Assembly: GCA_965261355.1 (NCBI GenBank)
Contig: CBDHDK010000002.1
Span: 268,637 to 332,636, forward strand
Length of the DNA stretch: 64,000 nucleotides
Reading direction: 5' to 3'
Source of the DNA: Dehalococcoidia bacterium
Lineage (GTDB): Bacteria; Chloroflexota; Dehalococcoidia; Lucifugimonadales; UBA3495
Position 1 is the stretch's first letter. Each line of letters starts with the position of its first letter. This document shows positions 6,692 through 47,907 of this stretch, in pieces. The notes below the pieces were generated by a model. The model was not told where the DNA came from and ran no database searches. It saw only the letters and a list, made by a program, of their open reading frames with translations. A program made the position numbers and the translations under genes.

Positions 6692-6833
6692 GCCGTGCCA
6701 GAAGCCGTCCTCACTCACTCACCCGCCCAGCCAGCTGCCAGCCTGCCTCTGTGACACTTCTCCCGAACAACTGGCGCGGACATTTACGCTGGCCAATGAC
6801 CTCTCTGGTGATACATTTTTGCTCCGCCCCAGT

Positions 6834-7067
6834 TGTTGACGTCCAGCAAAAAGGTCCTCGCTAACAGGCCAGCATAAATGTCACATTCACCCTATGGAGA
6901 ATGTGACTTTGACTCCCAAGGAACAGACAAGACTACAGGTTCTCAACAGCCTGATGGCAGAGCACATGACGTTGGATCAGGCGGCCACGCTGATGGGTGT
7001 CAGCACCAGGCACACGAGGCGTATGCTGGCGGCCTACCGGGAGAAGGGAGTTGCCTCGGTTGTCCAC
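6834..7067 (+). mobile_element. IS1202-like (ISNCY) element, left end and 5' fragment
   Basis: Near-identical to 13317-13550. Confidence 0.85.
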
Positions 7068-7119
7068 GACGACCCGGGCCGCAACATAGGGCGCCCCCGA
7101 TCATCAAACCGGCCGACAA

Positions 7120-7437
7120 TCACAGGAGCAAGTCCGCCGGATCGGTATCGAGAAACTCGACCTCAAACTCGGAGTCGCGCAGGCCGGCGGATTCAACCCT
7201 GGCGAACACATGCTCCAACGAGCCGGCCACGGCTATAACCCCGTTCCGGCCCACCGCCACCCATTGGTCAGGGTACAGTTCCATCAGGGCGCCCCGCTCC
7301 CGATTCATGCGCAGGACGGCCTCGCGGAACTCCTCTCTCCTCTCCCGCAGGGCCTCAACGCCGCCCAGCCGGTCGATGATCGCCTGCACATCCGCCTCAT
7401 CCATCGGGCGTCTTCCACCACCGGCGGTTTCGGGCAT
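7120..7437 (-). CDS. DUF5678-like small protein
   Basis: LMELYPDQWVAV..GVIAVA motif; RBS aggag. Confidence 0.55.
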   Translation of the reverse strand: MPETAGGGRRPMDEADVQAIIDRLGGVEALRERREEFREAVLRMNRERGALMELYPDQWVAVGRNGVIAVAGSLEHVFARVESAGLRDSEFEVEFLDTDPADLLL

Positions 7438-7532
7438 GGCTCTCCTGCCAGTCAGAAAACGGCATTGCCATGCGGGTGCGTACAAGGTTACATACGCCGG
7501 AACAGACGGTCAAGGACAGACCCAGCAGCCCC

Positions 7533-7665
7533 CAGGACGATTGCAAAGTCTTCTACAACCCCGTCATGGTGAGCCTGTCGAACCATCGGTGGCTAGTATG
7601 GGCATCCTTCGACAAGCTCAGGATGAGCAGAAACCGATAGGCGACGTTACTTTGCAATCGTCCTG
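7533..7665. mobile_element. MITE with ISAs1-type ends enclosing a REP-like hairpin
   Basis: Perfect 17-bp TIR caggacgattgcaaagt, identical to the ISAs1 end at 11409-11425. Confidence 0.7.
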
Positions 7666-7741
7666 GGGGGAGGGGTTGCCGAGCGGACAACCCCGCGTCA
7701 AAGCGGCTATAATGCCGCTCCATCAGCCAAGTGGAGGGCCG

Positions 7742-8143
7742 GTGAGCAGAGCCAAGCGGGCAATGGCCGCCCTCGCCATCGTGGTTGCCGCCCTAGTAGT
7801 GGCCGGGGCGTACCTCCTCGCTGGTGATCTGCAGGGCCCAGGGGCCGATGGGCCGTTCAGAATCGACGCCGCGCACTGCAACGGCGGCGCTCCCTACATG
7901 CTCCTGTGGGACCGGGCAAGCTTGGAACTCGGGAACCCGCCGGACTTCTTGGTCGAGAACGTCCGCATGGAGTTCAGGGTGGGGGAGCCGGGCTGGTCGG
8001 CCCTAAGAGTGCTGTCCCTTGAGATGGTTCTGTTAGCTGACGGCAAGGCTTACCTGGCCAGCGGCCACGTTGAGATACACGACTGCAGACTGGAAGACTT
8101 CAAGATTGTGGAGGGCATCAGGAAGGTGGGGGAACACCGGTAG
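7742..8143 (+). CDS. Hypothetical membrane-anchored protein
   Basis: GTG with ggagg RBS; N-terminal hydrophobic helix. Confidence 0.5.
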   Translation: MSRAKRAMAALAIVVAALVVAGAYLLAGDLQGPGADGPFRIDAAHCNGGAPYMLLWDRASLELGNPPDFLVENVRMEFRVGEPGWSALRVLSLEMVLLADGKAYLASGHVEIHDCRLEDFKIVEGIRKVGEHR

Positions 8144-8574
8144 GGCGCGCTGGAATCCCGTCCAGATGCAGCGACGTTCCCTATCCGCAATCACTTGAGG
8201 GGCCTAGCACGCACGATCCCGAAATCCGGCACCGAGATAGCCCGCCCGCGTTGACGCCTTTCGTCAGAACGTCGGCGGATCCGGGACCAAGTTAAGAGCC
8301 GGAACCAAGTGGCGGAATTTTCTCGATACCAGGGCAATCGCGTCTTAATCTATGGTGCATAATGAGTATCTACCGCATTGATGGTCCTCCCGAATACCAG
8401 CATTTTGGGACCAACCTCGCCTGTCCCGGAGTCATCCTGGGCCTTGCTCCAGCCCAATTTCCAGTGCCATCAGAGCTTCGCCCCAGGGTTTTGAGCGCTG
8501 TCAATGACGGGTTAGAAATGAGCCATTTGTAACGGGTTGGAACTAAGCCACATCGTTGATGTCCAGCGATTCTG

Positions 8575-10619
<2,045 letters not shown>

Positions 10620-10715
10620 GCACCTCCGCCAAGTGTCCGGCGATGATGCCCCAGCTATCGAGGTGGCTCAATTCCAGTCCGTAATTTTTGGCTCAGTTTA
10701 AGCCCGTTATTAACA

Positions 10716-11425
10716 CAGCAAATTCCTCTGCCAATGCCGCCAGCACCTGGGGTTGGTTCCCCTTGATGCGCACCAGGCAGTCTCGTCCGTGGCTCACGAT
10801 GGCCTGGCACAGGTCCCGCTCCGCATACAGAGCGTCCATGGTCAGCAGCCTCAGGCCGGGATAGCGCTCGAACAGTTTCCCCAACTGTTCCCGCAACACC
10901 CAGGGTTCGTACCGTTTCTCCGATGCCGGCCACTGGGCCAGGCACAGCTTCAGGTCATGGGCCAGTACGTTCACCATCACCAGAGGATTGCCGCTTACGT
11001 CCTCAGACTGCTTGGCCCATTTGCCGTCCACCGAGGCGTGCACCTCCTGGTCCGCCACCGCCTGGGCCACCCATCCCGCCAGGGCGCCCTGCAGCTGCTC
11101 ATAAGGGACCCCGGCCAAGGTGCGGGAGATGGTGGTGGCGTGGGGCGGATGGTCCCGCACAAAGCCCAAAGGCTCCCTCAGCACCGGCCAGTGCATCTTG
11201 GCGAAGAGGGCGATGTGGGCCATGGTGGTCTGACCACAAACCAAGCCCAGCAGGGTCAGCCGGAGGATGGCCTGAAAGGGATGCCGGCACTCCCCTGGCC
11301 CTCCTGGGATCCGGCACCAGTTCCAAACATCCGAACAGAGATTCCGCCGCCTCCATATCCGCACACTCCCATATCTCACTTCCCTGTCTTTATAAACTTC
11401 CCTCCGTGACTTTGCAATCGTCCTG
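10716..11425 (-). pseudogene. ISAs1-family transposase remnant with left end
   Basis: VPDPRRARG..HPF, SVDGKW, TMDALY, IKGNQP; frameshifted and truncated by IS21-A. Confidence 0.8.
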
Positions 11426-12431
11426 GGCCGAGACCACCGAGGCCTTCCTGGACGGCCACGTAGCAGCCTTCGCCTTTCTGGGCGGAGTCCCCCAGAGCAT
11501 CCTCTACGACAACACCAGGCTGGCGGCGGCGAGGATCCTGGGCGACGGCCGGCGTCAACGCACCCGCGCCTTCACCGAGCTGCAGTCCCACTACCTGTTC
11601 GAGGACCGGTTCGGCCGTCCCGGCAAGGGCAATGACAAGGGCAAGGTGGAAGGCTTGGTGGGGTACATGCGCCGCAACTTTCTGGTGCCGGTGCCGTCCT
11701 TCGAAAGCTTTGATGCGCTCAATGCCTACTTGGAGCGACGATGCCTGGAACGAATGGACGCCAAGCTCAGGGGACATACGGAGACGATTGGCCAGCGGAT
11801 GGAGCGGGACCTGGACGCCCTGCTGCCCCTGCCTCCGGTGGCCTACGACGCTTGCGATAAGCAGGTTGGCCGGGTGAGTTCGCTGTCCCTGGTAAGGTAC
11901 AGGACCAACGACTACTCGGTGCCGGTGGCCTACGGATACCGGGACGTGCTGGTACGGGGATATGTGGACCAGGTGGTGATCAGCTGCGGGTCCGAGGTCA
12001 TCGCCAGGCACCGCCGATCATACGAGCGCGACGACTTCGTCTACGACCCCATCCACTACCTGCCGCTCTTGGAGCGTAAGCCGGGAGCTCTGGACCAGGC
12101 CGCACCCCTGCAGGGCTGGGAACTCCCCGATGAGTTTGGGACGCTGCGCCGGCTGCTGGAGTCCCGCATGGGACGGCGGGGCAAGCGGGAGTACGTGCAG
12201 GCGCTGAGGCTGCTGGAGACCTTCTCCCTGCAGGAAGTGCACGCAGCGGTAAAGGACGCCCTCCGGCTGGAAGCCATCAGCTTCGACGCCGTCAAGCACT
12301 TGGTGCTGTGCCGGCTGGAGGGGCGGCCGCTCAGGCTGGACCTGGAGCTCTATCCCTACCTGCCCCGGGTCAGAGTCAGCACCACGTCCGCCATGGACTA
12401 CATGACCCTGTTGTCGGGGAGAGCGGCATGA
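11426..12431 (+). pseudogene. istA: 5'-truncated istA of a second IS21 (IS21-B)
   Basis: LYDNTR, GNDKGKVEGLVG; begins at the ISAs1 end. Confidence 0.85.
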
Positions 12432-13210
12432 ACGACCGGTCGACGCTGCTATTGGAACACCATCTCAAAGAGCTGAAGCTGCCCAGCTTCCTGAGAGAGT
12501 ACGGGAAGATGGCTGCCCTGTGCGCCGCCGAGGGGGTGGACCATCCCCAGTACCTGCTCAGGCTGGCTGAGCTTGAGCTCATCGACCGCCACCAGCGCAT
12601 GGTGGAGCGGCGGATCCGCGCCGCCCGTTTCCCCGCGGTCAAGAGCCTGGACACCCTCGACTTTCCGGCCATCCCGTCGCTGAACAAGTCCCTGGTGATG
12701 GAACTGGCACGCTGTGAATACATCCAGCGCCGGGAGAATATCATCGCCGTTGGCAACAGCGGCACCGGCAAGACCCACGTGGCTCTGGGACTGGGCCTCG
12801 CCGCCTGCCAGCGCGGACTCTCAGTGGGTTTCACCACCGCCGCCGCACTGGTCCACGAGATGATGGAGGCCAGGGACGAAAGGCGCCTGCTGAACTTACA
12901 GCGACAACTGTCCCGGCTCAACCTGCTGATCATCGACGAACTGGGCTTCGTGCCGCTCTCCCGCACCGGAGCGGAACTGCTCTTCGAGGTCTTCAGCCAA
13001 CGCTACGAGCGGGGCTCCATCCTGGTGACCACCAATTTGCCCTTCGACGAGTGGACCGAGGTCTTCGGCTCGGAACGGCTCACCGGAGCCCTGCTGGACC
13101 GGCTCACCCATCACGTCCACATCCTGGAGATGAACGGCGAAAGCTACCGGCTCAAGCGTAGCAGGGAAACCGCCGCGTCCCAAGCTCCAGACGATCGCGA
13201 GGAAGAATAG
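12428..13210 (+). CDS. istB: IS21 helper ATPase IstB
   Basis: GNSGTGKTH, LIIDELG; ATGA overlap with istA. Confidence 0.9.
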   Translation: MNDRSTLLLEHHLKELKLPSFLREYGKMAALCAAEGVDHPQYLLRLAELELIDRHQRMVERRIRAARFPAVKSLDTLDFPAIPSLNKSLVMELARCEYIQRRENIIAVGNSGTGKTHVALGLGLAACQRGLSVGFTTAAALVHEMMEARDERRLLNLQRQLSRLNLLIIDELGFVPLSRTGAELLFEVFSQRYERGSILVTTNLPFDEWTEVFGSERLTGALLDRLTHHVHILEMNGESYRLKRSRETAASQAPDDREEE

Positions 13211-13316
13211 GGCACACCGCCAACGCTGTCTCCTCCTGCTCCTGTAACGTCCCCACTCCGACCGCTTTACTGCCGTCTGTCATCACGTCGGTGGTACACG
13301 ATCACGCCGCCCCAGT

Positions 13317-14960
13317 TGTTGACGTCCAGCAAAAAGGTCCTCGCTAACAGGCCAGCATAAATGTCACATTCACCCCATGGAGAATGTGACTTTGACTCCC
13401 AAGGAACAGACAAGACTACAGGTTCTCAACAGCCTGATGGCAGAGCACATGACGTTGGATCAGGCGGCCACGCTGATGGGTGTCAGCACTCGGCACACCA
13501 GGCGCATCCTGGCGGCCTACCGGGAGAGGGGAGTTGCCGCAGTTGCCCACGGCCACCGGGGTCGCAGAGCGCCCAATGCTACCCCCGAGGCCGTTTTGGA
13601 CGATGTGGTTCATCTGGCTGGCAAGAGGTACCCAGGGGCCAACCACACCCATCTCAGCGAGTTGCTGAGCGAACACGAGGGCATCGACATCGGCAGGACC
13701 ACGCTCAGACGCATCCTGGTCAACGCCGGGCTGAAGAGTCCACGGCGAAGGCGTCCTCCCAAGCACCGGGTACGCCGCCAGCGAATGCCCCGGGAGGGGA
13801 TGCTGCTCCAGGTGGACGGCAGCTTCCACCCGTGGTTGGGGGATCAGGTTCCGCCGTTCACGTTGCTGATCGCAGTGGATGATGCCACCGGCACGGTGGC
13901 CGACGCCCTGTTCTGCGAGAAGGAGGAGGCCTACACCTATTTCCTGCTGGTCCAGGACTTGGTGCAGAGCGCTGGCATTCCCGTGGCCCTCTACGTCGAC
14001 CGGCACGGGGTCTTCAGGCACACACCAGGGTCCGGCCTCCCTACGACGTCGACCCAGTTCAGCCGGGCCATGGACGAGTTGGGGATACAGATGATATTCG
14101 CCCTCTCTCCACAAGCCAAGGGTCGCGTGGAGCGGGCTGCTGGAACCTTTCAGGACCGGCTGGTCACCGAACTCCGGTTGGCGGGCGCCAGCAGCATCAG
14201 GGAGGCCAACGGGGTGCTGGAGCAGTTTCTGCCGCGATACAACCGGCGCTTCCGGGTCCCCCCGCAATGCTCTGAGTCCGCGTACCGGCCTCTGGGCCCT
14301 GATCTATCCTTGGAGCAGGTCCTGTGCTTCAAGCACCGCAGGAAGGTGGCCAAGGACAATACGGTGAAGTTCCAGCTGCATACGCTGCAGTTGCTGCCGG
14401 AGCCGGAACGCCCCAGCTATGCCGGTGCGGTCGTGGAGGTCCTGGAAGGACTGGACGGCCGGCTCAGGGTGCGCCACGAGGGACGCATCATCAACGCCCA
14501 GGAGGCGCCGCCCAGCCCGGTATTCCTCCGCAACGGCCAGGGCGATTCGGCCACTCCTCTCCTTTCGCCCGCCGGGGCCTACTACTCGGACCAGCGCTGG
14601 GCAGCCACCCTCAAGGCACTGGACTCAAGGACGACGGATGAGGAACATCAAGTGGGCATAACCGGCGGTGCGTCCGCTGCCTTGACACCCGCAACTGTCC
14701 CCCCGCGCAAACCAACCTTCCTGCAGAAGGAGAGATGGAAGGCGATTCAGAAAGCCGGGCGCAAGGGGATGTCGCTGCGGGCGATCGAGAGGGAGTTGGG
14801 AATCCACAGATCCACCATCAAGAAATACATGGACGCCGACGGTCCTCCAGGGCGGCGTTCCCGGCCGGCTCTCACTGCTTAAACATCCGATACAGTGCCG
14901 GCATAAGAAAGTGACATTTATGCTGAACATCTAGCCGGACATTTATGCTGGCCTTCGACA
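13317..14960 (+). mobile_element. Complete IS1202-like (ISNCY) element inside the IS21-B right end
   Basis: TGT..ACA ends with repeated cagcataaatgtc motifs; 7-bp DR ccccagt at 13310-13316 and 14961-14967; IS21 tip resumes to 14993. Confidence 0.88.
13377..14882 (+). CDS. IS1202-like rve transposase with C-terminal HTH
   Basis: LQVDGSFH, AVDDATG, YVDRHG, PQAKGRVER, QDRL; C-terminal GMSLRAIERELGIHRSTIKKY. Confidence 0.88.
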   Translation: MENVTLTPKEQTRLQVLNSLMAEHMTLDQAATLMGVSTRHTRRILAAYRERGVAAVAHGHRGRRAPNATPEAVLDDVVHLAGKRYPGANHTHLSELLSEHEGIDIGRTTLRRILVNAGLKSPRRRRPPKHRVRRQRMPREGMLLQVDGSFHPWLGDQVPPFTLLIAVDDATGTVADALFCEKEEAYTYFLLVQDLVQSAGIPVALYVDRHGVFRHTPGSGLPTTSTQFSRAMDELGIQMIFALSPQAKGRVERAAGTFQDRLVTELRLAGASSIREANGVLEQFLPRYNRRFRVPPQCSESAYRPLGPDLSLEQVLCFKHRRKVAKDNTVKFQLHTLQLLPEPERPSYAGAVVEVLEGLDGRLRVRHEGRIINAQEAPPSPVFLRNGQGDSATPLLSPAGAYYSDQRWAATLKALDSRTTDEEHQVGITGGASAALTPATVPPRKPTFLQKERWKAIQKAGRKGMSLRAIERELGIHRSTIKKYMDADGPPGRRSRPALTA

Positions 14961-14993
14961 CCCCAGTGGCCCAATATCTCGGCGCCATTGACA

Positions 14994-24189: not shown

Positions 24190-24540
24190 TCTTCCGCTCA
24201 CAGGTTCCACATTGCCGCCGCTCCTGACACCCACGATACCGTGGCGGCCGATGTGGTGCATTTGGCGCGTACCAAGGATGCAGGAACCAACCACTCACAT
24301 CTCAGCGAGTTGCTGAGTGAGCGCGGGGGCATCGACATCGGCAGGACCACACTGCGGCGCATCTTGGTCAACGCCGGGCTGAGCAGTCCGCGGCGCAGGC
24401 GCCAGCCAAAGCACCGGGTACGCCGCCAGCGGCACGGTGGTCGACGCCCTCTTCTGCAAGAAGGAGGACGCCCACAGTTGCTTCCTGCTGATCCACGGTC
24501 CTTTGCAGCGTTGCGGCATTCCCATCGCACTCAACACAAA
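24190..24540 (+). pseudogene. Internal remnant of an IS1202-like transposase
   Basis: NHSHLSELLSERGGIDIGRTTLRRIL matches the 13377 ORF. Confidence 0.75.
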
Positions 24541-26295: not shown

Positions 26296-26296
26296 G

Positions 26297-31100: not shown

Positions 31101-31979
31101 CGGGCAGTTGCACCTGTCCGGCAGGGCAGGTCACCCACACCATAGTGCCAGCGGGACGGCGTACGGATGCCGCGGGTCGGATACACCACTTGCAGGCCTT
31201 CCAGTTCGACGGGTCCGAATGTATGACATGTCCCCTGCGGTCTCAGTGCATCTCGGCCAAGGGCAGGAAGGGACGGCGGGTGCTGATCCATCCCCAGGAG
31301 GCTCTCCTGCAACAGGCCCGTGCGTTGCAACAGAGCGCCGGGTATGACGAATATCGAGCGCGACGCGTGGTGGTCGAGCACAGATTGGCCCGACTGGTCC
31401 AGTTGGGCATTCGCCAGTCCCGCTACTTCGGACGCGCCAAGACGCGATTCCAGCTGTACCTAGCGGCTACAGTGGCCAACCTGACCCTGGTGGCGGGCAA
31501 AATCGAGCTGTCGGACAGTGTCGGCGGTGGGCTTCCGCGCCACCGCGCCGTCCTCAGTGCCGTCCCCAGTGATGTCCAGGCTGTTTCCCACGGTGTGGTC
31601 GCCCATGCTACGGCCATTTTCGGCGCTGTCCGGCTCGGACTGCTGTGGTCCCAGATTCTGTTCGCCCCGGCTTTACTGCCGAAATCTCTCTCCCCATCCA
31701 GGGCTTTTCGGCCCGGCTTCTAGCGGCTACAGTGGCCAACCTGACCCTGGTGGCGGGCAAAATCGAGCTGTCGGACAGTGTCGGCGGTGGGCTTCCGCGC
31801 CACCGCGCCGTCCTCAGTGCCGTCCCCAGTGATGTCCAGGCTGTTTCCCACGGTGTGGTCGCCCATGCTACGGCCATTTTCGGCGCTGTCCGGCTCGGAC
31901 TGCTGTGGTCCCAGATTCTGTTCGCCCCGGCTTTACTGCCGAAATCTCTCTCCCCATCCAGGGCTTTTCGGCCCGGCTT
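28173..31979 (+). mobile_element. IS1182-like element copy 1, split by copy 2
   Basis: 5' part 28173-29817 and 3' part 31724-31979; CTAG-flanked. Confidence 0.88.
29822..31719 (+). mobile_element. IS1182-like element copy 2 (transposase 29888-31723)
   Basis: GRDSVPP N-terminal domain, ALDTT, GDAAYG, CTCPAG, VVEHRLA; CTAG duplicated at 29818 and 31720. Confidence 0.88.
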
Positions 31980-35773: not shown

Positions 35774-36614
35774 CTAGATAACCCGGTCTCCCCACCCTGG
35801 CGTGGACTGGCTGTCCGTCTCACCAGACCCCCCGGGCAAAGGAGCCAACATTACGCGCCAACGGGGACTTTCCTTGAACGCCTCAACAAGGAGTTCCTCG
35901 AGCGGAACATCGATGTCGATATCGTCGAATTCGAAGTTGAAGGCAGCCTTCACGTGGGCCGGGCATACGAGGCCCGTCGTGGCGTGGTTCTCCAGTCCCA
36001 CCCGCCTCAGTTCCTCGCGTTCGGCGAGGGTCATCTTCCGTTGGTAGTGGCAGCCAGCGATGGCGCATTTGACCGACGCTTTTCTGGGCATTTCCCCAAT
36101 ATTACAACAACAGCTCGAGAAGGGGGGCTGGCATGCGCGCAGGGTGTTCAGCGTCAACCTTTATCTTGGTTGTGGAGTGGGAACAATCCCTGCACCCAGG
36201 TAGTCCTGGGCATAGGCTCACAAACCGGAAAGGGCCGTTGAACGCTGAAAATGAGATTTGCACAACTGGTTCTTCTGACCGCCGGACGTAACCCGGGGGA
36301 CAGGACGGACCCCGTCCGCCAACTGTTGACGACCGAAGGCAAAACGTTACTTTTTACCGGTAATTACCCCCCGTCCGCTGGAGTGTGGCTTAGACCATCT
36401 CCCTCGGGTGGGCGTTTTTATGCCATCGGCGCTCCCACGGGGCACAGCACAGCCACCGGCGCCGGCGGAGTCGAACCGGAAACGCCAGGCGGGTAAGCCG
36501 GCCGGGTGATTGACTCCACCGCGCCGGATGCCGAGGCAGGTAATCCCCCGACCTGTGCTAGGATTCGGACAAGCCTCCCCAAAGCCGCCCAGCAAACGCA
36601 GGGACTGGAGCGAT

Positions 36615-39600
36615 ATGAGAATGTCACGACTTTTCCTGGGAATATTTTCCCTTGCACTGATTCTACCGTTGTTGCTGCTGGCCTGCGTCGGCTCTGATGA
36701 GCCGACGCATGGGCCATCCTCGGAACGGGCCACCGCGGCTCCGACAGACCTGCCCGACTCGGAACGGGCCACCGATGAGCCGGAGGACAGGGCATCCTCT
36801 GGACAGACCACACCCGAGCCGACCCCGCCCGCACCGGACCGGGAAGCGCTGGTCGCCATCTATAACGCCACCGGCGGCCCGAATTGGATAAGAAACAATA
36901 ACTGGCTGAGCGACGCGCCGATTAGCGAGTGGGAAGGCGTCACCACTGACGGCAACGGCCGCGTCACCGAACTGTGGCTCAACGGGAACGAGTTGAGCGG
37001 GGAAATACCGCCCGAGCTGGGCAACCTCGCCAACCTGATCGAGTTGTACCTCTTCAGGAACCAGTTGACCGGGGAGATACCGCCGGAGTTGGGCAACCTC
37101 GCCAACCTGACATGGCTGGACCTCGACGGGAACCAGTTCAGCGGGGAGATACCGCCGGAGTTGGGCAACCTCGCCAACTTGACCGGGCTGGGCCTCAGCG
37201 GGGACGGGTTGAGCGGGGGGATTCCGCCGGAGTTGGGCAACCTCGCCAACCTGACATCGCTATACATCCAGCAAACCCAGTTGAGCGGGGGGATTCCGCC
37301 GGAGTTGGGCAACCTCGCCAATCTGAAACATATGTACCTCATCTGGAACCAGTTGAGCGGGGAGATTCCGCCGGAGTTGGGCAATCTCGCCAACCTGACA
37401 AGGCTGGGCCTTTCCAACAACGAGTTGAGCGGGGAGATACCGCGGGAGTTGGGCAACCTCGCCAACCTGACAGTGCTGGGCCTCGGCAGGAACCAGTTGA
37501 GCGGGGAGATACCGCCGGAGTTGGGCAGCTTCGCCAACCTGATAAGGCTGGGCCTCAACGGGAACCAGTTGAGTGGGGAGATACCGCCGGAGTTCGGCAA
37601 CCTCGCCCACCTGCAATTTCTGGGCCTCGACGGGAACCAGTTGAGTGGGGAGATACCGCCGGAGTTCGGCAACCTCGCCCACCTGCAATTTCTGGGCCTC
37701 GACGGGAACCAGTTGAGCGGGTGCGTGCCAAGCAGTTTGTCAGGCCGTTTGGATTTGGAGCGTTCAGACCTAGGTGGTCTCCCGCTCTGCCCCTGGCCCG
37801 AAGCGGACCGGAACGCACTGGTTGCCTTCTATAACGCCACCGGCGGCCCGTACTGGAATAGTAACGATAACTGGCTGAGCGACGTGCCGATCAGTGAATG
37901 GGCAGGTGTCACCACTGACGGCAACGGCCGCGTCACCCAACTGTGGTTCGACGGGAACCAGTTGAGCGGGGAGATACCGCCCGGGTTGGGCACCCTCGCC
38001 AACCTGGCAGTACTGGGCCTCGGCTGGAACCAGTTGAGCGGGGAGATACCGCCGGAGTTGGGCAACCTCGCCAACCTGGAACTTCTGTGGCTCGTCCGGA
38101 ACCAGTTGAGCGGGGAGATACCGCCGGAGTTGGGCAACCTCGCCAACCTGAAATGGCTGCACCTTGAGGGGAACCAGTTGAGCGGGTGCGTACCAAGCAG
38201 TTTGTCAGTCCGGTTGGATATGGAAGAATCAGACCTGGGTGGTCTTCCGCCCTGCCCTGCGGCCACCGCCGAGCCGATGATGGCGCAGACCCCGCCCGAA
38301 ACGGACCGGGAAGCGCTGGTCGCCCTCTATAACGCCACCGGCGGCCCGAATTGGATAAGAGACAATAACTGGCTGAGCGACGTGCCGATCAGCGAATGGG
38401 AAGGCGTCGCCACTGACGGCAACGGCCGCGTCACCGAACTGGACCTCGAGGGGAACGAGTTGAGCGGGGAGATACCGCCGGAGTTGGGCAACCTCGTTAA
38501 CCTGGAATTTCTGTGGCTGGTCCGGAACGAGTTGAGCGGGGAGATACCGCCGGAGTTCGGCAACCTCGCCAACCTGGAATTTCTGGGCCTCGACGGGAAC
38601 GAGTTGAGCGGGGAGATACCGCCGGAGTTCGGCAACCTCGCCAACCTGACAGGGGGATTGTACCTCGGCGGGAACCAGTTGAGCGGGTGCGTGCCAAACT
38701 ATTTGTCGGGCCGGTTGGATATGGAACGTTCAGACCTGGGTGATCTCCAGTTCTGCCGTGCCTGGGGTGAACCTTCCAAGCGCCGGCCCACCACGATACC
38801 CGCTGCCATAGGGTTCGCAGAATGCATCCCTGAGGATCTGCACCACCACCTGTTGAGCATTGACGCCATCGAAAGTCTGGAGGACCTCAGGACGGTCAAC
38901 TGGGCCCCTCCCGCGGAGTTGGGTTCTGTTTACATTCCGGAAATCTGCCAGACCGTAGATGTGGTTCTCACTGCCGGTGAAGAACCCAAGGTTTTCAACG
39001 ACAACGTATTCGTCCTGCCCATCCCGGGAGACCTGGTCACGGAGCAACCCCTGAATCCCACTCACTACACTTCCCGCTTCTATGAATACTTTGACGATGA
39101 GTTTGATTTTCTGATATTCGTCACAAGTTTGCACCAATTCGTAGAACAAAGGCTCGGCGGCGGTAATCCCCAGTATTACCCTGTGTCCAACGGCGTGCGG
39201 GGAATCGGGTTCCGCATTTGGTCCAATGCGCAGAAGATGGGTTCGGGCGGCAGGCTTCAAGGTTTGGTCCGGATGCCCACCTACAGAACGATGGCTCATC
39301 AACACATATTGCTGCATGAACTCATGCACCGCTGGGGGGCTTATATAACAGGGAGCCTGGATTACCATTGGGCCTTCAGCAGTACCCACGGAATTTTGGG
39401 AGGATTTGACATTGCCGACTTGATGGATCTCGGCGACGGCGACTTTGCCGTCAGGCATAATTCGCTCAGCACCGGCGTACTTACCGACTCCAGTCGAACT
39501 GATGTCTACAGTCCAATTGAATTGTACGTGGCGGGCTTCATGCCACCGGGCGGCGTGCCAGACCTTTGGGTTGGTGAGGACGCGGAATGGGTACGGGACC

Positions 39601-39941
39601 AGTGGGGAGCGTATTCGCTCTACAGTGGGAAATACACTTTCTTCAAGCCGGGTACGGTCAGGATCTATACGATCGAGGAAATCATAGCGGAGCATGGCGA
39701 ACGCATCCCGGACTCGTCCCGGTCCCAAAAGGATTTCCGGGCGGCGGTGGTCATGCTAATTGACGGGAACCACCCGGCAACGAAGTGGCAACTGGACCAA
39801 TTGAGTTCCTACGTCGCCGCGTTCAGTTTCCCTGGGGAAAGTCGTGATGGCATGTACAACTTTTATGAAGCAACCGGAGGGCGGGGTACGATTGCCATGG
39901 GAGAGTTGTCAGAATTCCTGAAGGGGGGCAGTGAGCCCTAG
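36615..39941 (+). CDS. Lipoprotein with three plant-type LRR modules and a C-terminal HExxH zinc-metalloprotease-like domain
   Basis: Lipobox LLAC; DREALVA.YNATGG.NW caps; 24-aa LSGEIPPELGNLANL repeats; LLHELMHRWG. Confidence 0.88.
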   Translation: MRMSRLFLGIFSLALILPLLLLACVGSDEPTHGPSSERATAAPTDLPDSERATDEPEDRASSGQTTPEPTPPAPDREALVAIYNATGGPNWIRNNNWLSDAPISEWEGVTTDGNGRVTELWLNGNELSGEIPPELGNLANLIELYLFRNQLTGEIPPELGNLANLTWLDLDGNQFSGEIPPELGNLANLTGLGLSGDGLSGGIPPELGNLANLTSLYIQQTQLSGGIPPELGNLANLKHMYLIWNQLSGEIPPELGNLANLTRLGLSNNELSGEIPRELGNLANLTVLGLGRNQLSGEIPPELGSFANLIRLGLNGNQLSGEIPPEFGNLAHLQFLGLDGNQLSGEIPPEFGNLAHLQFLGLDGNQLSGCVPSSLSGRLDLERSDLGGLPLCPWPEADRNALVAFYNATGGPYWNSNDNWLSDVPISEWAGVTTDGNGRVTQLWFDGNQLSGEIPPGLGTLANLAVLGLGWNQLSGEIPPELGNLANLELLWLVRNQLSGEIPPELGNLANLKWLHLEGNQLSGCVPSSLSVRLDMEESDLGGLPPCPAATAEPMMAQTPPETDREALVALYNATGGPNWIRDNNWLSDVPISEWEGVATDGNGRVTELDLEGNELSGEIPPELGNLVNLEFLWLVRNELSGEIPPEFGNLANLEFLGLDGNELSGEIPPEFGNLANLTGGLYLGGNQLSGCVPNYLSGRLDMERSDLGDLQFCRAWGEPSKRRPTTIPAAIGFAECIPEDLHHHLLSIDAIESLEDLRTVNWAPPAELGSVYIPEICQTVDVVLTAGEEPKVFNDNVFVLPIPGDLVTEQPLNPTHYTSRFYEYFDDEFDFLIFVTSLHQFVEQRLGGGNPQYYPVSNGVRGIGFRIWSNAQKMGSGGRLQGLVRMPTYRTMAHQHILLHELMHRWGAYITGSLDYHWAFSSTHGILGGFDIADLMDLGDGDFAVRHNSLSTGVLTDSSRTDVYSPIELYVAGFMPPGGVPDLWVGEDAEWVRDQWGAYSLYSGKYTFFKPGTVRIYTIEEIIAEHGERIPDSSRSQKDFRAAVVMLIDGNHPATKWQLDQLSSYVAAFSFPGESRDGMYNFYEATGGRGTIAMGELSEFLKGGSEP

Positions 39942-41852
39942 AAATCTGGCCGGAAAGTGGTTTGAGTCGCCGAGCATTTATAATTGGGGTCAACAAGAGT
40001 AGCGAGGGTTGAGAATGCTGGGAGAGCGTTCGGACCAGAGGGGTCTTTGGGAAGCGGACCGGTTGTACCTGGACCACGTGGGGAAGGACACCTTCTACGG
40101 TCTGCTGGCTTCCCTGCGGGGCCGGCTGTTCCAGGACTCCGATTTCGCGGTGTTCTACTGCGCTGACAACGGCCGGGACAGCGTGCCGCCCAGCCTGCTG
40201 GCCACGGCGCTGCTGTTGCAGACCCACGACAAGGTGAGCGACGCCGAGGCCAAGGCCCGGGCCGACTTCGACATCCGCTGGAAGGTGGCTCTGGGGATTG
40301 AGGTGGAGGACAGGCCCTTCGCCAAAAGCACGCTCCAGGTGTTCCGGGCCCAGCTGATCCTGCACGACAGGGTGCGGGAGGTATTCGAGTCCAGCGTGCG
40401 CCTCGCCCGGGAGTCGGGCTACCTGAAGAGGCGCAGCATGAAGGTGGCTCTGGACACGACCAACATCCTGGGCCGGGGCGCGGTGAGGGACACCTACAAT
40501 CTGCTGGCCGACGGGATCGTCAAACTGATGCGGGCGCTGGCGCAGGTTGAGGGAATCAGCGTCGGGAAATGGGCCAAGGCCCGGGGATACGGGCGGTACC
40601 TCGCCTCCAGCATCAAGGGAGAGGCGACCATCGACTGGTCGGACAAGCGGGCGCGGACGGCACTGCTGGCGGGGATTGTGGGAGACGCGGACCGGCTCTT
40701 GGAATTATCGCGGCTGGCCCAGGGGGAGTTGCCCGAGGACGGTGCTGAGCGTCAGCAGATAGTGGCGGCGGCGGAACTGCTGGGGCAGTTGCTGCTCCAG
40801 GACATTGAGCGCAAGGGTGGCGACGGCGACGGCGATGACGGCGTGAGCCTCAAGGACGGGGTGAGCAAGGACCGGATGATGTCGGTGCACGACCCTGAGA
40901 TGCGCCACGGGCACAAGAGCAGCAGGAGACGCTTCGACGGACACAAGGCGGCGATTGTGGTTGACACCGACACCCAGCTGATCACCGCCGTGGAGGTACT
41001 GCCGGGCAACGCTCCGGACAACCTGGGGGCGCTGGAACTGGTAGAACAGAGCGAGGCCAACACCGGTGTGCCGGTGCAGGAGGCCATGGGCGACGCCGCC
41101 TATGGAGACGGAGCTACCAGGCAGACCTTCGCCGACGCGGGCCGCACCCTGATTGCCCGGGTGCCGGGACGGCCCGACCGGCAGCGCTTTCCCAAGAATG
41201 ACTTTGTCATCGACCTGGTGGCGGGCAGTTGCACCTGTCCGGCAGGGCAGGTCACCCACACCATAGTGCCAGCGGGACGGCGTACGGATGCCGCGGGTCG
41301 GATACACCACTTGCAGGCCTTCCAGTTCGACGGGTCCGAATGTATGACATGTCCCCTGCGGTCTCAGTGCATCTCGGCCAAGGGCAGGAAGGGACGGCGG
41401 GTGCTGATCCATCCCCAGGAGGCTCTCCTGCAACAGGCCCGTGCGTTGCAACAGAGCGCCGGGTATGACGAATATCGAGCGCGACGCGTGGTGGTCGAGC
41501 ACAGATTGGCCCGACTGGTCCAGTTGGGCATTCGCCAGTCCCGCTACTTCGGACGCGCCAAGACGCGATTCCAGCTGTACCTAGCGGCTACAGTGGCCAA
41601 CCTGACCCTGGTGGCGGGCAAAATCGAGCTGTCGGACAGTGTCGGCGGTGGGCTTCCGCGCCACCGCGCCGTCCTCAGTGCCGTCCCCAGTGCCGTCCCC
41701 AGTGATGTCCAGGCTGTTTCCCACGGTGTGGTCGCCCATGCTACGGCCATTTTCGGCGCTGTCCGGCTCGGACTGCTGTGGTCCCAGATTCTGTTCGCCC
41801 CGGCTTTACTGCCGAAATCTCTCTCCCCATCCAGGGCTTTTCGGCCCGGCTT
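39942..41852 (+). mobile_element. IS1182-like element copy 3 (transposase 40009-41856)
   Basis: Near-identical to copy 2; CTAG at 39938 and 41853. Confidence 0.88.
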
Positions 41853-41870
41853 CTAGTAGCCTGTCCGAAG

Positions 41871-43078: not shown

Positions 43079-43114
43079 TAAACCCGTGATAAAGATAGGC
43101 TTGTCACGGGTTTA
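43079..43114. other. loxP-like recombination site
   Basis: taaacccgtgataa-agataggc-ttgtcacgggttta: 14-bp arms (1 mismatch) and 8-bp spacer. Confidence 0.65.
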
Positions 43115-43126
43115 TGGGAGCCCCCG

Positions 43127-43901: not shown

Positions 43902-44140
43902 CTAGTCGGCCGCGGTTAGGTGAAAAGACCCCTCGGCCAGGTAATCGCGGCAGACGACGAGAACCGGCAGATTGTCCATGCGATTCGGAGACCCGCACTT
44001 GGCGCACCTCGGTAGCACAGCCCCGTAGGTCCGCTCGGACAGCCCAACCTCCAAGTAGCTCCACCATCGCCCCCACGGTGTCTCGACGAGAATCATGCCG
44101 TCCGCCCAGGGGCGCGGCTGAGGGCCATGCAGTATAGCGT
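43902..44140 (-). pseudogene. Possible replication-relaxation nuclease C-terminal fragment
   Basis: WADG..YLEVGLS..LPVLVVC. Confidence 0.35.
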
Positions 44141-44344
44141 CAGGAGATGGACCGGCGCTTCCTTGCGGATTCCTCTCCAGTTGGACCACTTTTACCCGGC
44201 GCGACATGGATGACATCTCCAGGGCGCCGTTCCCAGGAAAACGGAGAGGAGCCGGAGGCCAGCAACTGATGACAGTCGGGCATTGCGAGTGGAAGGACCG
44301 AGGGGTTATCGTGAAACTCTCACTCTTCCTCAAGGGCCTGGGTC

Positions 44345-44768
44345 ATGGCCAACCCCACCTGCAGGAACTGCGACCGCAGCGCCGACGCCGGCGCTTACTG
44401 CAGTTCGTGCGCCTCGGGAATCATGGCCAGTGCCCTCAACCCCCACTCCCGCGGCCGATGGAAGAAACTTCCGCCAGGACAAGGGACACTTCCACGGCGG
44501 CCAGGACCCACTGCCGACAACTCTTCAGGTCAACAGCGCCTGTTCGGGCAGTCCCGACCATAGCGTTACACGGTGTAACGATATGAGAAAGATGGCCGCC
44601 TGTTGGACCTGCGGCCGCACCTTCTGGGTGTGGCGGCTCAGGGAGCGCAACTTCTGCTCTGGGAAGTGCCGGGTGCGACATCACCGCTCTGCCTTCAGGA
44701 AGCCCAGCAGGTCGAAGTCGGACGAGAGAGTCCTGGACCAGAGGTGGTCGGGAACACCCCCAGCCTAG
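44345..44768 (+). repeat. Copy 3 of zinc-finger module (ORFs 44345-44563 and 44583-44768)
   Basis: Near-identical to copy 2. Confidence 0.7.
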
Positions 44769-44880
44769 GGCGCGGACCGAGGCAAGGAACTTTCTCGAGT
44801 ACGAGGGAGGATTGCACTGGGACCCGTATCAGTACAAAGATCTGGCCTCAAGAGAAGCACTCTTGAAACCCGCCCAGCTA

Positions 44881-45210
44881 TCAGCCGTCGGCCGCAAGCC
44901 TCGCACTTACCAGGCGGTTCAGGCTCACCCCTGCCTCAGCGGCTTGAACGGCCAATGCGCGGTGAGTTTCAGGGGGGACGCGGACCATGAACTTACCGCT
45001 GTAAACGCGATCCGCCATTGGCTCCGGCACTCGCTCGCTGTTGGACTGCATGTCAGCAACACAGTCGGACACCAGTTCGCGAATACCGGAGAAGGCCTCT
45101 TCCTGACTGCCGGACAACCAGCTCAACAGCGGGAACTCTGCGCAGAGACCAACAAATTCTCCATCTTCGGAGGACCAAGTAACTCGATATGTGTAGTGGT
45201 CGATCATCAT
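44881..45210 (-). CDS. hicB: HicB-like antitoxin
   Basis: WS.ED..FVG.C.EFP.LSW; YSGKFMVRVPPE.HR.L...A...GVSLN. Confidence 0.85.
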   Translation of the reverse strand: MMIDHYTYRVTWSSEDGEFVGLCAEFPLLSWLSGSQEEAFSGIRELVSDCVADMQSNSERVPEPMADRVYSGKFMVRVPPETHRALAVQAAEAGVSLNRLVSARLAADG

Positions 45211-45269
45211 TCACTGTCTATGTAAGTCTATGTAATTCGATTCTATTAGATTCTTAGGTAACGTTGGGT

Positions 45270-45527
45270 CTAGGTTCTAAGCTCCTTCTCTAACCGCTCA
45301 AGGGCTTTTATGACTTGCCTGACTTGGTAGTCTTTGGCCATACCGTTGCTACCCCTCTGAATGTTCACCCTTGGGTCCCCGGGCCACGGGGTCCGGTAGA
45401 CCGAGTGGCTGCTTCCCTGCCGCCGTGGTGTTCCGAAGAAACGGTCGCATATCTTGGCGAGGTCTGCGAACCGGATGCCCTTGCGGTTCCTACGGAGTTC
45501 CTGAATCGCCGCGGGAATGCCTTCCAT
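45270..45527 (-). CDS. hicA: HicA-like toxin
   Basis: RFADL..C..FFG.PR..GSSH..Y, AK.YQVRQV. Confidence 0.8.
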   Translation of the reverse strand: MEGIPAAIQELRRNRKGIRFADLAKICDRFFGTPRRQGSSHSVYRTPWPGDPRVNIQRGSNGMAKDYQVRQVIKALERLEKELRT

Positions 45528-45880
45528 ATTTCAAGCCTCGCATTAGTATTCTCTCCTTATCCATCGCTCACCTCTCTTCCATGGAGCTCGAGCTTACGAT
45601 GCCAACATGATATCACTATTGATATCTTTTACCAAGAGACTGTGTGTCTTCAGCAGGGCAACTGTCTGGCCCGGTGCCCTGTGCGTCTGCGCACGCCAGA
45701 CGCTCCTATTCTTGCCGATTCTGTACGAAAACCACCCCTCCGGCGTTGCCTTTGCCTTGACCGATAATTACACTTATCAGACATGGCACAGTCAGCTCAG
45801 CAATGCTGCCGGCACCTCCACGAAGTCTTCGCGGATTATGCCTGCGCTACCGAGGTGGCTCAATTCTGAGTCAGCGATTT

Positions 45881-47513
45881 TGTCATTGCTCTACGATAAC
45901 GTCCGCGTGAATTGCTCAGGGAAAATGTCCGTCTATGAAGGACGTGACATTGAACCAATGAGAGCAGGCAAGACTCCAAGTGCTCAACCGCGTGATGGAA
46001 TATCAACTTCCCAGGGCTCAGGCGGCCGAACTTCTGGGGATCAGCGAACGCCAAGTCCGGCGAATCCTGGCGGCCTACCGGAGGGATGGGGCCGCCGCAC
46101 TGGTCCACGGCAACCGGGGCCGCAAGCCCCGCAACTCGGTCCCCGAGGATGTCGCTGCCACCACGGTCATCCTGGCCAGCACGACCTACTTCGGCTTCAA
46201 CCACAGCCATCTGACCGAGGTCCTGGCAGAGCGGGAGGGCATTCAGCTGAGCCGGCAGACGATAAGCCGTCTGCTCAACCGCCACGGCCTGAACAGTGCC
46301 AGGGGCCATCGTCCCCCCAAACATCGTGTACGCCGGGAGCGTATGCCCCAGGAGGGCATGCTGCTGCAGATCGACGGCAGCCATCATCGCTGGCTGGAGG
46401 ACAGAGGTCCCAGATTCGTATTGCTGCTGGCAGTGGACGCCGCCACCGGCACGGTGGCCAATGCCATATTCCGACCCGAGGAGGACACTCGGGGCTACTT
46501 CCAGCTGATGGATGGGGTAATCCGGCGCTACGGCATCCCCCTGGCTCTCTACGGTGATCGCCACGGGGTCTTCAAGTTCAACGGCAAGCCCCGGCATATC
46601 CCCCAACCGGTGGGCCCAACCCAGTTCACCCGGGCCATGGGTGAACTGGGCATCGAACAGATCTTTGCCCGCTCGCCACAGGCCAAGGGACGCGTGGAAC
46701 GCATGAACGGCACCTTCCAGGACCGGCTGGTCAGCGAACTCAGGCTGGCGGGAGCCGCGACCATCGACCAGGCCAACGCCGCGCTGCGGGACTTCCTGCC
46801 CCGTTTCAACTCTCAATCCCGTGTGCCTGCCCAGCAGCCCCAGGTTGCCTATCGTTCCTTGGCCTCCTCCCTGCATCTGGAACGGATCCTCTGCTTCAAG
46901 CACCTGCGCCAGGTGGCCAGGGACAACACCGTCAAATACCAGTTGCGCACCCTGCAGCTGCTTCCAGTCCAGAACCGGCCCAGCTATGCCGGTGTCAAGG
47001 TGGAGGTGCTGGAGCAGAGCGACGGACAGCTGATGGTGCAGCACGAGGGGAAGGTGATCGCCCACCAGGAAGCTCCGCCCAAGGCGGGAGCGCTGCGGGC
47101 CGCCCAGGGGGCACTGGCTCCTACTCCCGAACTGGCCCAGGTGGTCAGGAACCTGAGCCAGCATGGTCTCACCAAGTTGCAACTGCAGCGCCTGGCCGCC
47201 TTGGAAGCACCCGTCGACCAACCGATGAATGATGAGAGCGGCCCCACCTCTTACACTCCGCCACCCAAGCAGGCAACGCCGCGCAAGCAGGCCCTGTGGA
47301 AAGCTGTCCACCACGCCAAGCTGCAGGGTGTCTCCCTGAGGGGCATCGCCAAGCAACTGGGTATTTCCAGAAACACGGTCAGGAAGTACGTCGACTTGCC
47401 AGCTCCCCCCATCAACCGGACTCCCAGACTGACTGCCCAATCAGTAACTCAGCACCATACCAACGGATATTTTCCCTGAGCACTTGGGCGGACATTTTCG
47501 CTGGACAACGACA
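45881..47513 (+). mobile_element. Second IS1202-like element (transposase 45935-47479, TGA at codon 9) inside an IS21 left-end remnant
   Basis: TGT..ACA ends; 7-bp DR gcgattt at 45874 and 47514; joined flanks match the IS21-A end at about 10605-10715. Confidence 0.88.
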
Positions 47514-47907
47514 GCGATTTTGGCTCACTTTAAGCCCAGCGGTGGCAAAAGGAAGGTTCAGTGATAAATGCCCTCAATCCCCAATCCCCAATCAATTGGG
47601 GGGAGTCCACCCAAATGCGAGACCCGGCGAAAGCCGGGCTTTTGCCTTTTGCCGTCGGCCTTAAGGCCGGAGGAGCGACGCCCTGGGGCGCGTCACTGTT
47701 ATGACAGCAGGCAGTTGAGATTTTGAGGGGCCATAGCGGAAAATAAACCTGAGGCCCGGTTGCGATCGACGAAGAGTATGCGTCGGCAGCGACGCCGCAA
47801 CGGGGCCTCGGCACCAGCAGATAGAAGGACTCCAACAAACAGGCCAAGCTAGCCAGCAAAGCACAGACAGTTTATGGGTAGGTCCATCGAGCGAGGCAGG
47901 CCGCAGC

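Follow-up and report, generated by a model that had tools for sequence, protein, structure and literature searches.

A group of IS1202-family elements with a putative IstA-like C-terminal domain favors the direct repeats at the ends of IS21 elements

Why do insertion sequences (IS) of one family lie, copy after copy, inside the ends of another? The question is raised by a 64,000-nucleotide stretch of a Dehalococcoidia bacterium genome (assembly GCA_965261355.1, contig CBDHDK010000002.1, positions 268,637 to 332,636 of the forward strand; hereafter the window, numbered from its first letter), in which all three IS1202-like insertions that retain an end are embedded in the terminal repeats of IS21-family elements. 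We use ISx as a working name for the IS1202-family elements found in the window and its relatives. A first-pass annotation had proposed that this lineage homes into the repeats bound by IstA, the IS21 transposase. We found that ISx has inserted independently and with exact positioning into IS21 direct repeats in many genomes, that its target sites share a register-specific DNA motif, present at non-IS21 sites too, and that its preference for IS21 ends is a strong hot spot, not obligate or exclusive homing.

The ISx copies of the window and the IS21 sequences around them, with lengths in base pairs (bp), are as follows.

11426-13316, forward strand: IS21-B copy (istA and istB), host of ISx1; blastn identity 90.8% to positions 1059-2952 of IS21-B', a 2536-bp IS21-family element of the same genome, the match stopping exactly at the ISx1 junction.
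13290-13316, forward strand: core of the inner IS21-B right-end repeat (13290-13309) and left duplication CCCCAGT (13310-13316).
13317-14960, forward strand: ISx1, IS1202-family element of 1644 bp with TGT...ACA ends; 384 bits with NF033594.
14961-14993, forward strand: right duplication CCCCAGT (14961-14967) and terminal IS21-B repeat (14968-14993), tip ...CATTGACA.
45807-45880, forward strand: left-end relic (inner repeat) of an IS21-A-like element, ending in the left GCGATTT (45874-45880); 78% identity to 10615-10674.
45881-47513, forward strand: ISx2, divergent IS1202-family element of 1633 bp, open reading frame (ORF) 45980-47479; 399 bits with NF033594.
47514-47547, forward strand: right GCGATTT (47514-47520) and 27-bp terminal repeat of the IS21-A-like relic, tip ...GGTGGCA.
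6101-6691, forward strand: 3' part of istB in an IS21-B-like variant, host of the third insertion; Pfam IstB_IS21, E 2.6e-53 for ORF 6176-6691.
6774-6800, forward strand: relic resembling an ISx right end (GCGCGGACATTTACGCTGGCCAATGAC), read from the sequence.
6807-6833, forward strand: IS21 repeat core (6807-6826) and 7-bp target CCCCAGT (6827-6833), fitting the target consensus given below.
6834-7083, forward strand: truncated ISx, left end and first 250 bp only; blastn 94.4% over 250 bp to ISx1 positions 1-250.
8499-10715, reverse strand: IS21-A, a complete IS21-family element; Pfam IstB_IS21, rve and Mu-transpos_C_2.
24229-24535, forward strand: degraded internal fragment of an ISx transposase gene; blastn 81% and 78% to ISx1 265-467 and 568-678, also found by tblastn.

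ISx1 has the ends TGTTGACG...CTTCGACA and a single transposase ORF (13377-14882, 501 residues), and its perfect 7-bp CCCCAGT duplication is followed by 26 bp (14968-14993) to the IS21 tip. The 5' third of its host is unlike IS21-B', and the left end of that host is cut by IS21-A. In the intervening 10716-11425 region, the first 168 residues of IstA ORF 10923-12431 are likewise unlike IS21-B' and match an IS21-like sequence elsewhere in the genome (C1:3151770-3152476, 84% DNA identity), which makes the ISx1 host a hybrid or recombinant IS21. ISx2, whose transposase is 52% identical to that of ISx1, has a perfect GCGATTT duplication and lies 27 bp from a tip; one TGA interrupts its alignment to ISx1, and the N-terminus of the ISx2 transposase is probably cut by it. 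The empty site rebuilt from the rejoined flanks of ISx2 agreed at 38 of 56 positions with the left end of IS21-A (10660-10715), which contains two direct repeats and whose tip at 10715 was confirmed by four further genome copies (99.6-99.7% identity) with similarity ending at 8486-8499 and 10715-10719. No istA remained beside this IS21-A-like relic by tblastn. The third, truncated insertion is preceded by CCCCAGT (6827-6833) and stands downstream of a second, different istB copy, which by tblastn is 90% identical to IstB-B residues 105-298 and about 88-90% identical to the first istB copy. These three cases, with perfect duplications at the two intact copies, are much as the first-pass annotation had described them, and the right-end relic that it had placed before the third is present, but at 6774-6800. 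In all three, the right end of ISx, or the place where it would be expected, faces the IS21 tip. Beyond its break, the truncated copy reads in frame into 1.4 kb (7084-8498) that is unique in the genome, and past its first 50 residues ORF 6878-8143 has no Pfam or NCBIfam match.

The source genome (three contigs, 4.84 Mb) contains more than 40 IS21 transposase matches and, by blastn and tblastn, about 19 ISx copies or fragments. When both ends of 11 intact IS21-B' copies were compared, all 11 right ends read as a single uninterrupted ...CACGCCG CCCCAGT GGCCCA(C/A)...CGCC(A/C)TTGACA, and several copies had short target duplications of their own. CCCCAGT occurs just once in each of these right ends, so ISx1 entered by simple insertion, 26 bp short of a genuine IS21 tip. 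Nine or ten of the 11 ISx right ends examined genome-wide lay 32-55 bp from an IS21-type tip, which excludes chance as the cause. In five, 7 bp were followed by a 25-26-bp IS21-B-type terminal repeat (one with CCTTACT on both sides of the element); two were 54-55 bp from an IS21-B left tip; and two, of ISx2 type, were 34 bp from a tip. One nearly full ISx (C3:1169513-1171171) had IS21-B sequence on both sides without a duplication, and an ISx2 copy (C1:3146461-3148092) had inserted inside an istB gene with the duplication TCGAGGA. Two further elements, ISx3a and ISx3b, adjoin the second left-end repeat of two IS21-C elements; as these ISx copies are 96.8% identical and their hosts only 75% identical, they inserted independently. 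At two places (the C3:620971 region of the source genome and locus L121), a single IS21-B right end carried two different ISx, one at the repeat junction and the other with its left end 2 bp from the tip.

Does this placement recur in other genomes? ISx-like transposases were present in 22 of 41 related genomes searched, and a scan of a species-level genome collection confirmed 409 relatives, from which 80 loci were kept, all in Dehalococcoidia or SAR202 records. The set analyzed comprised the source genome and loci L001-L129; a scored automatic end-finder was used for all counts, and partial or frameshifted copies (alignment beginning past query residue 25 or stopping more than 30 residues short of the transposase C-terminus) were excluded. 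This procedure yielded 112 full-length ISx insertions, 96 of them distinct by their flanks. The 7-bp duplication was perfect in 45 of the 96 and matched at six or five of seven positions in four and three more; the other 44, with four or fewer matches, were old or rearranged. Neighboring IS21 genes were scored by tblastn with a panel of IstA and IstB proteins from the source genome. In 19 insertions a same-strand istB ended no more than 350 bp before the ISx left end, and in 13 an opposite-strand istA started within 450 bp upstream, giving 32 in canonical arrangement among the 36 with adjacent IS21 genes; two others were in a reversed left-end arrangement and two had IS21 genes nearby otherwise arranged. 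The remaining 60 had no IS21 genes within 700 bp, and many of these were visibly solo IS21 ends. The first proposal, that ISx inserts into the IstA-binding repeats, was borne out, with a frequency far above chance.

Independence of the insertions is supported by the diversity of both partners. At the same right-end spot we found the perfect duplications CCCCAGT, CCCCGGT, CCCCACT, CCGCAGT, CCGCGGT, CCCCGTG, CCCCGCT, and CCACACG, and the spot was used by several ISx lineages, with left ends TGTTGACG, TGTCGAAG, TGTTGTTG, and TGTAACTG. In locus L060, from another genome, the host variant of the third window copy occurs again, relic included (6774-6800 in the window), and there it had been hit by a different ISx lineage with the duplication CCCCACT. 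Perfect duplications of different ISx lineages at one spot in diverged IS21 copies mean independent insertions. The first-pass annotation had suspected as much for the third window insertion, and these findings, the L060 variant among them, tell against descent of the three from one ancestral insertion. IS21 transposase genes were present in 21 of the 22 ISx-positive relatives and in three of the 19 ISx-negative ones, a strong co-occurrence but, among kin genomes, a descriptive one. One related genome, G037, had 14 identical IS21 transposase matches and no ISx match, and is a natural control for IS21 expansion without ISx. Beyond Dehalococcoidia, two plasmid matches (H1 and H2, aligned to residues 493 and 434) had no annotated IS21 genes nearby, the H2 record being unannotated.

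What does ISx recognize? Alignment of 28 canonical IS21-B-type sites gave cGGtGGTaCActTTT.C.CCG as the consensus of the left flank, with the duplicated 7 bp coming next. The target motif of about 17-19 bp (consensus GGTGGTaCActTTT.C.CCG, or GGTNCA..TTT..CCG) is the inner conserved half of the 24-26-bp IS21 direct repeats, insertion occurs in the 7 bp just outside this core, and the ISx left end usually lies next to the core. In IS21-B, core and 7 bp read GGTACACGATCACGCCG plus CCCCAGT in the inner right repeat, GGCCCACTTTCTCAGCG plus CCATTGA plus CA in the terminal right repeat, GGGACAATTTACCTCCG plus CCGCTTA plus CA in the terminal left repeat, and GGTCCAATTTGCAACC plus GCCGTTT in the second left repeat. 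IS21 ends hold two or three repeats in tandem, and tandem units of core plus 7 bp account for all three recurrent insertion positions: 27-33 bp from the tip, at the junction of inner and terminal repeats, where the window copies lie; 3-9 bp from the tip (perfectly duplicated in L035, L052, and L063, and off register by one base in L120); and, in the second left-end repeat, about 49-55 bp from the left tip (L027, L073, and L087). The proposal that the geometry is fixed and the target sequences differ thus holds for the register, insertion falling in the outermost 7 bp of whichever IS21 repeat unit is hit, and fails in that the targets share a motif and lie at three distances from the tip.

Several results support guidance by this motif. 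First, a weight matrix trained on the 28 canonical sites, with p<0.01 judged against 200,000 random 19-mers of the source genome, was applied to an independent set of 24 sites with a duplication that lacked both a neighboring IS21 gene and an obvious solo end. At the canonical register of -26, ten of these 24 scored p<0.01, compared with 0-2 at each of 26 other registers; in the mirror register of the right flank, three and two of the 24 did so at offsets 6 and 7. Second, the ISx2 copy inside istB has GGTGCA at the canonical distance. Third, among all 96 distinct insertions the core-like motif (p<0.01) was found beside the element in at least one of four registers at 71 sites, where about ten register-offset tests per site would yield roughly 10% of sites by chance. 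Orientation is strongly biased without being invariant: 41 of the 96 carried the motif in the canonical register and eight in the reversed one, so that the common orientation noted for the three window copies does not extend to every insertion. Two insertions with perfect duplications are reversed, L057 (ACCAGGG) and L074 (AGTGGGG).

Some copies had unusual flanks. In L024, L025, L010, L051, L053, L058, L065, L068, and L079 the same IS21 end stood inverted on both sides, over 9 to 58 bp; L023 belongs to this group on its left side only, and L005 is the reciprocal case, flanked on either side by inner IS21 sequence. None of the inverted-flank copies nor L005 had a direct duplication. The patterns suggest flank exchange between oppositely oriented copies or intramolecular replicative inversion and point to chromosome rearrangements driven by ISx. 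Inspection by eye found no duplication outside the IS21 tips of the symmetric copies L051, L053, L058, L024, L025, and L010, and the suggestion that ISx rides on IS21 found no support. In L042/L114, L120, and L125, 1-8 extra bases separated the duplication from the ISx left end, in one case with a duplicated TGTTGTTG.

Are IS21 ends the sole destination? In one related genome of 3.7 Mb, 18 ISx copies that are 99.9-100% identical occupied 17 distinct sites. By eye, four of the 17 were canonical IS21-B right-end flanks (four different IS21-B ends, the copies 99.9% identical), one lay 2 bp from an IS21 tip (duplication CCCTTGA, then CA), one had an IS21-like left flank and no duplication, and one abutted another ISx end. 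The other ten had landed in ordinary DNA unrelated to IS21 and left clean 7-bp duplications, among them an insertion in an IS256-type transposase gene; together with the ISx2 copy inside istB, these ten rule out the exclusive homing first proposed. About five of 17 sites on a few exact IS21-end positions in a 3.7-Mb genome is nonetheless far beyond chance. IS21 ends are thus the best targets of ISx, not the sole ones, and weaker chance matches to the motif elsewhere are also used. Age matters as well: nearly all old, degraded copies of the source genome were in IS21 ends, whereas the young 18-copy family was mostly elsewhere, so that most copies lie at unrelated sites in that family and not among the older insertions. 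Survivorship in neutral DNA clearly adds to the association.

To which family does ISx belong? The scores of ISx1 and ISx2 with NF033594, the ISNCY_2 equivalog of NCBIfam, exceeded the cut-off of 250 bits, in agreement with the IS1202-like identity assigned at first. Pfam recognized N-terminal helix-turn-helix (HTH) domains and a weak rve_3 match only, and by tblastn annotated plasmid transposases of ISKpn21/ISEsa1 type were 34-37% identical over residues ~4-372/381 only. The IS1202 family (Harmer, Pong & Hall 2023) is defined by a transposase related to TnpAjo2/Tnp1202 (the IS1202 group of ISNCY); by a DDE triad with Q, not K or R, seven residues past E (PMC10132070); and by TGT...ACA ends, each with an imperfect inverted repeat of 24-26 bp and a further binding site internal to it. 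In a six-sequence alignment, D147, E252, and Q259 (the seventh residue after E) were invariant; the second catalytic D, at about residue 208, was taken from the consensus line and stands outside the listed invariants. The ends of ISx are TGT...ACA, with imperfect inverted repeats matching at 16-24 of 26-28 positions, and an internal motif, GACATTTATGCTG, is repeated near the right end, its reverse complement CAGCATAAATGTC and a degenerate copy lying near the left end. Membership of IS21 was not supported: ISx has a single ORF and scored 57 bits with NF033546 (cut-off 160), although its N-terminal region and core are distantly IstA-like (NF033546 positions 4-270, E 1.9e-15). Judged by transposase and ends, ISx elements are members of the IS1202 family.

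The 7-bp duplication falls outside the lengths described for IS1202 subgroups, given as 3-5, 16-28, or 0 bp (PMC10132070) and as 5-6, 16-17, or 27-28 bp (bioRxiv 10.1101/2022.12.17.520857), and it argues for a new subgroup rather than against family membership. The ISx3 lineage may make a 6-bp duplication (L014, L016). No dif-like TTATG..AAAT half-sites were seen in the ISx flanks read, which contained IS21 repeats instead; no formal dif scan was made. We read ISx as a previously undescribed IS1202 subgroup that has TnsB-like DDE transposases, TGT...ACA ends, and a 7-bp duplication and that is abundant in Dehalococcoidia.

What might read the motif? NF033594 covers only residues 15-373 of the ISx1 transposase, and known relatives cease to align near 372-381. 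The last ~80 residues show conservation from one ISx lineage to the next, with W, A, A, G, S, R, L, T, Y, and PP unchanged in seven sequences, and a search with the C-terminal 77 residues returned only ISx-like proteins among the best 120 of 356 matches (E<=0.001). Multiple comparisons link this region, encoded in ISx1 at about 14718-14834, to the N-terminus of IstA. First, among 18,950 NCBIfam models the best match of the ISx1 C-terminus was to positions 3-42 of the IS21 transposase (E 1.4e-5; next 0.017). Second, BLASTP aligned the ISx C-terminus with the N-termini of IstA-B' (41% over 32 residues, E 9e-8, including PPG.R after the HTH) and IstA-A (36% over 33 residues, E 2e-6), and found no similarity between this HTH and the N-terminal HTH of ISx itself. 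Third, in a whole-PDB search the only significant matches were residues 10-49 of IstA from IS5376 (8Q4D, 8B4H; E 1.8e-4 for ISx1 and 3.1e-4 for ISx2), and a profile of seven ISx C-termini matched IstA with E 2.5e-9 (next 3.4e-4). Fourth, AlphaFold2 (AF2) predicted helices at 448-462, 467-474, and 478-486 with a predicted local distance difference test score (pLDDT) of 81-88, after a low-confidence stretch at 372-442, and a DNA-contacting arginine is conserved, ISx R478 aligning to IstA R31. By contrast, the C-terminal 100 residues of ISKpn21, the only dif-targeting relative tested, gave no match at E<=10. On these comparisons the ISx transposase carries a predicted C-terminal domain resembling HTH-1 of IstA, absent from the C-terminus of ISKpn21. 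Alignment scores were highest between ISx1 and IstA-B' (76; others 63, 51, 38, 27) and between ISx2 and IstA-A (82; others 68, 61, 48, 44), with shuffle controls reaching at most 52-57. The best-scoring IstA is of the observed host type in both cases, a hint of lineage matching that holds for these two lineages and not for ISx3.

Published work on IstA gives these observations a possible mechanistic frame. PMC10122671 describes HTH-1 (residues 1-39) as specifically contacting CS2, the inner conserved block of the repeat, in both R1 and R2, a sharp bend of the DNA near the R1-R2 junction imposed by HTH-1 of the catalytic IstA subunits, and an integration reaction that needs two complete direct repeats. 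We infer that the inner GGTNCA of the ISx target corresponds to CS2. In our judgment it is fairly probable that ISx is a new IS1202 subgroup steered by the core motif of the IstA-binding repeats, with the IstA-HTH-1-like C-terminal domain serving as target selector. The three-helix HTH, carried on a long flexible linker, would bind the core and hold the transpososome over the adjacent 7 bp; the motif would be read directly, probably without need for IstA. Insertion at the repeat junction would part the two repeats that IstA requires, and a hit IS21 copy would on this published biochemistry probably be disabled. ISx would then sit in selectively neutral DNA, with IS21 ends as a safe harbor. More tentatively, and with somewhat less confidence than doubt, we suggest that the C-terminal region may be a swappable target-selector module, and that a lineage which acquired or retained an IstA HTH-1 became a specific parasite of IS21 by landing in the junction and inactivating its host.

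A number of findings weigh against the main explanation. No core-like motif was found at 25 of the 96 sites, nor at five of the 17 sites of the active 18-copy family, and as the 28 training sites lie within the 96, only the 24-site test is independent. The ISx3/IS21-C pairs, with a different repeat sequence, provide too few sites to define a motif; the match of the ISx3a C-terminus to IstA is weak (E 0.049, rank 2), with alignment scores in the shuffle range. For the transposase as a whole the AF2 model, with a mean pLDDT of 53.4, is poor. The genomes sampled are kin, old and rearranged sites are numerous among them, and the case for the C-terminal HTH as a binder of the core comes from homology. 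The motif is also where IstA itself binds, so motif-bearing sites cannot separate direct reading from recognition of bound IstA. Finally, of 51 distinct ISx right ends (consensus ..CGGACATTTacgCTGaaCtTCGACA), 26 themselves resembled the motif, reaching p<0.01 with the target matrix at offset +1 (left ends, 17%); N-terminal end-binding domains could choose the target instead. Direct reading, recognition of bound IstA, and mimicry of the element's own ends all predict the same motif.

An IstA-dependent route, in which the transposase recognizes repeat-bound IstA or its roughly 70-degree R1-R2 bend and the C-terminal HTH docks by protein mimicry, has several observations in its favor. The main hot spot is the very junction described as sharply bent in the IstA-DNA complex, and IstA HTH-1 makes extensive protein contacts within the tetramer (PMC10122671); IS21 subfamilies A, B, and C, with differing repeat sequences, are hit at equivalent positions; IS21 genes accompany ISx among the related genomes, with the caveat on kinship given above; and for the relatives that target dif, recognition of bound XerC has been proposed (PMC10132070). 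We nevertheless regard this route as unlikely, as insertions 3-9 bp from a tip and at single weak motifs in ordinary genes need neither a repeat pair nor a junction, and a dedicated DNA-reading domain with the conserved R478 is more simply explained by DNA binding. Less likely still, in our view, is targeting by resemblance to the element's own inverted repeats (IR-targeting), in which N-terminal end-binding domains would bind IS21 repeats that look like ISx subterminal sites and the C-terminal HTH would serve some other use. The right-end matches, the homology of the ISx N-terminal region to IstA, and the ISx copies that abut other ISx ends (L032/L043; the relic at 6774-6800) are consistent with it. 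The right-end match is moderate and one base out of register, with nine offsets tried; the precedents are IS30 and IS911. More tellingly, ISKpn21-type relatives share the N-terminal domains, are without the C-terminal HTH, and target dif (PMC10132070). That there is no targeting at all, with better survival inside other IS or one ancient IS21::ISx composite spread by IS21 producing the association, is highly improbable and largely refuted: survivorship inflates the association, as the ages of the copies indicate, and two identical ISx-tip junctions with different outside flanks (n=2) would suit composite mobility, but neither version accounts for base-exact positions with perfect duplications, for ISx copies that are nearly identical although their hosts have diverged, for the use of one spot by different ISx lineages, or for a register-specific motif at non-IS21 sites.

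Other features of the window stand apart from ISx. An element of about 1.65 kb, with a transposase of 534-615 residues carrying DUF772, DDE_Tnp_1, and DDE_Tnp_1_6 domains, occurs three times (~28190-29840, 29838-31480, and 39959-41600; 96-100% identical over the stretches compared); two of the copies are in tandem and are followed by a perfect 260-bp tandem duplication (31460-31979), and one lies directly downstream of a 1143-residue ORF (36510-39941, forward strand) consisting mostly of 72-bp (24-residue) leucine-rich repeats in at least 15 tandem units. Unrelated to the ISx finding are a SWIM zinc-finger transposase with DDE_Tnp_1 (4018-5319) and a 1043-residue SNF2-family helicase with DUF3670 (53929-57060).

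These results describe a second IS1202 subgroup with a different, well-defined target and a candidate recognition domain of known structure and DNA contacts. How the dif-targeting subgroup finds dif is unexplained, and IS1202 targeting now becomes testable through an HTH of roughly 45 residues. ISx is also a clear case of a DDE IS specializing on the transposase-binding repeats of another IS family, which bears on competition and mutual limitation of mobile elements in IS-rich genomes. If the C-terminal region is indeed a selector module, IS1202 specificity could be re-aimed by swapping one small domain, and IS21 copy number in Dehalococcoidia genomes would be controlled in part by a second IS. 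We found no report in the literature of IS1202-family insertion into IS21 ends or of a 7-bp subgroup; "IS21" and "7 bp" are absent from the main text of PMC10132070 and of bioRxiv 10.1101/2022.12.17.520857, and the supplementary site tables of these papers might bear on the point.

The closest known system is the ISAjo2/ISAba32 subgroup (ISKpn21, ISAba71, and others), which shares with ISx the NF033594 match, an identity of 34-37% across the N-terminal HTHs and the catalytic core, and the Q after E. It also has TGT...ACA ends with a second internal binding site and inserts in an oriented manner with its duplication abutting a protein-binding site of roughly 26-28 bp (PMC10132070; bioRxiv 10.1101/2022.12.17.520857). 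This is the subgroup that the first-pass annotation had in mind in noting, correctly, that one IS1202 subgroup inserts at dif/pdif; its insertions and the XerC arm of the dif-like site are 3-6 bp apart (PMC10132070). According to the same two sources, Xer sites are the target of this one subgroup only, with no conserved target reported for others. ISx differs in its 7-bp duplication (compared with 3-6, 15-17, or 27-28 bp), in targeting IS21 direct repeats instead of Xer sites and doing so without exclusivity, and in a C-terminal region of ~120 residues that cannot be aligned with that of the subgroup and that includes the IstA-HTH-1-like domain, where ISKpn21 has none.

Insertion of one IS into the terminal repeats of another element has an established analog in the RNA-guided IS1111 group. 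IS4321 and IS5075 use DEDD recombinases guided by seekRNA or bridge RNA and make no comparable duplication, whereas ISx has a DDE, TnsB-like transposase and apparently protein-based recognition. Like ISx, these members of the IS1111/IS110 family land in the transposase-binding ends of another family, in their case the terminal inverted repeats of Tn21-type elements (PMC11187229). IS30 prefers sequences resembling transposase-binding ends, as ISx does, but those of its own family. IR-targeting by IS911 is likewise directed to ends of its own family. IstA of IS21/IS5376 (8Q4D, 8B4H) acts on the same repeats as ISx, and its residues 10-49, comprising HTH-1 and the PP motif, are those to which the HTH at the end of the ISx transposase aligns. 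ISx lacks an IstB partner, and in it this domain follows a long linker at the C-terminal end, whereas in IstA it is N-terminal. What adds interest to ISx is that it appears to have borrowed the domain with which the family it invades reads DNA.

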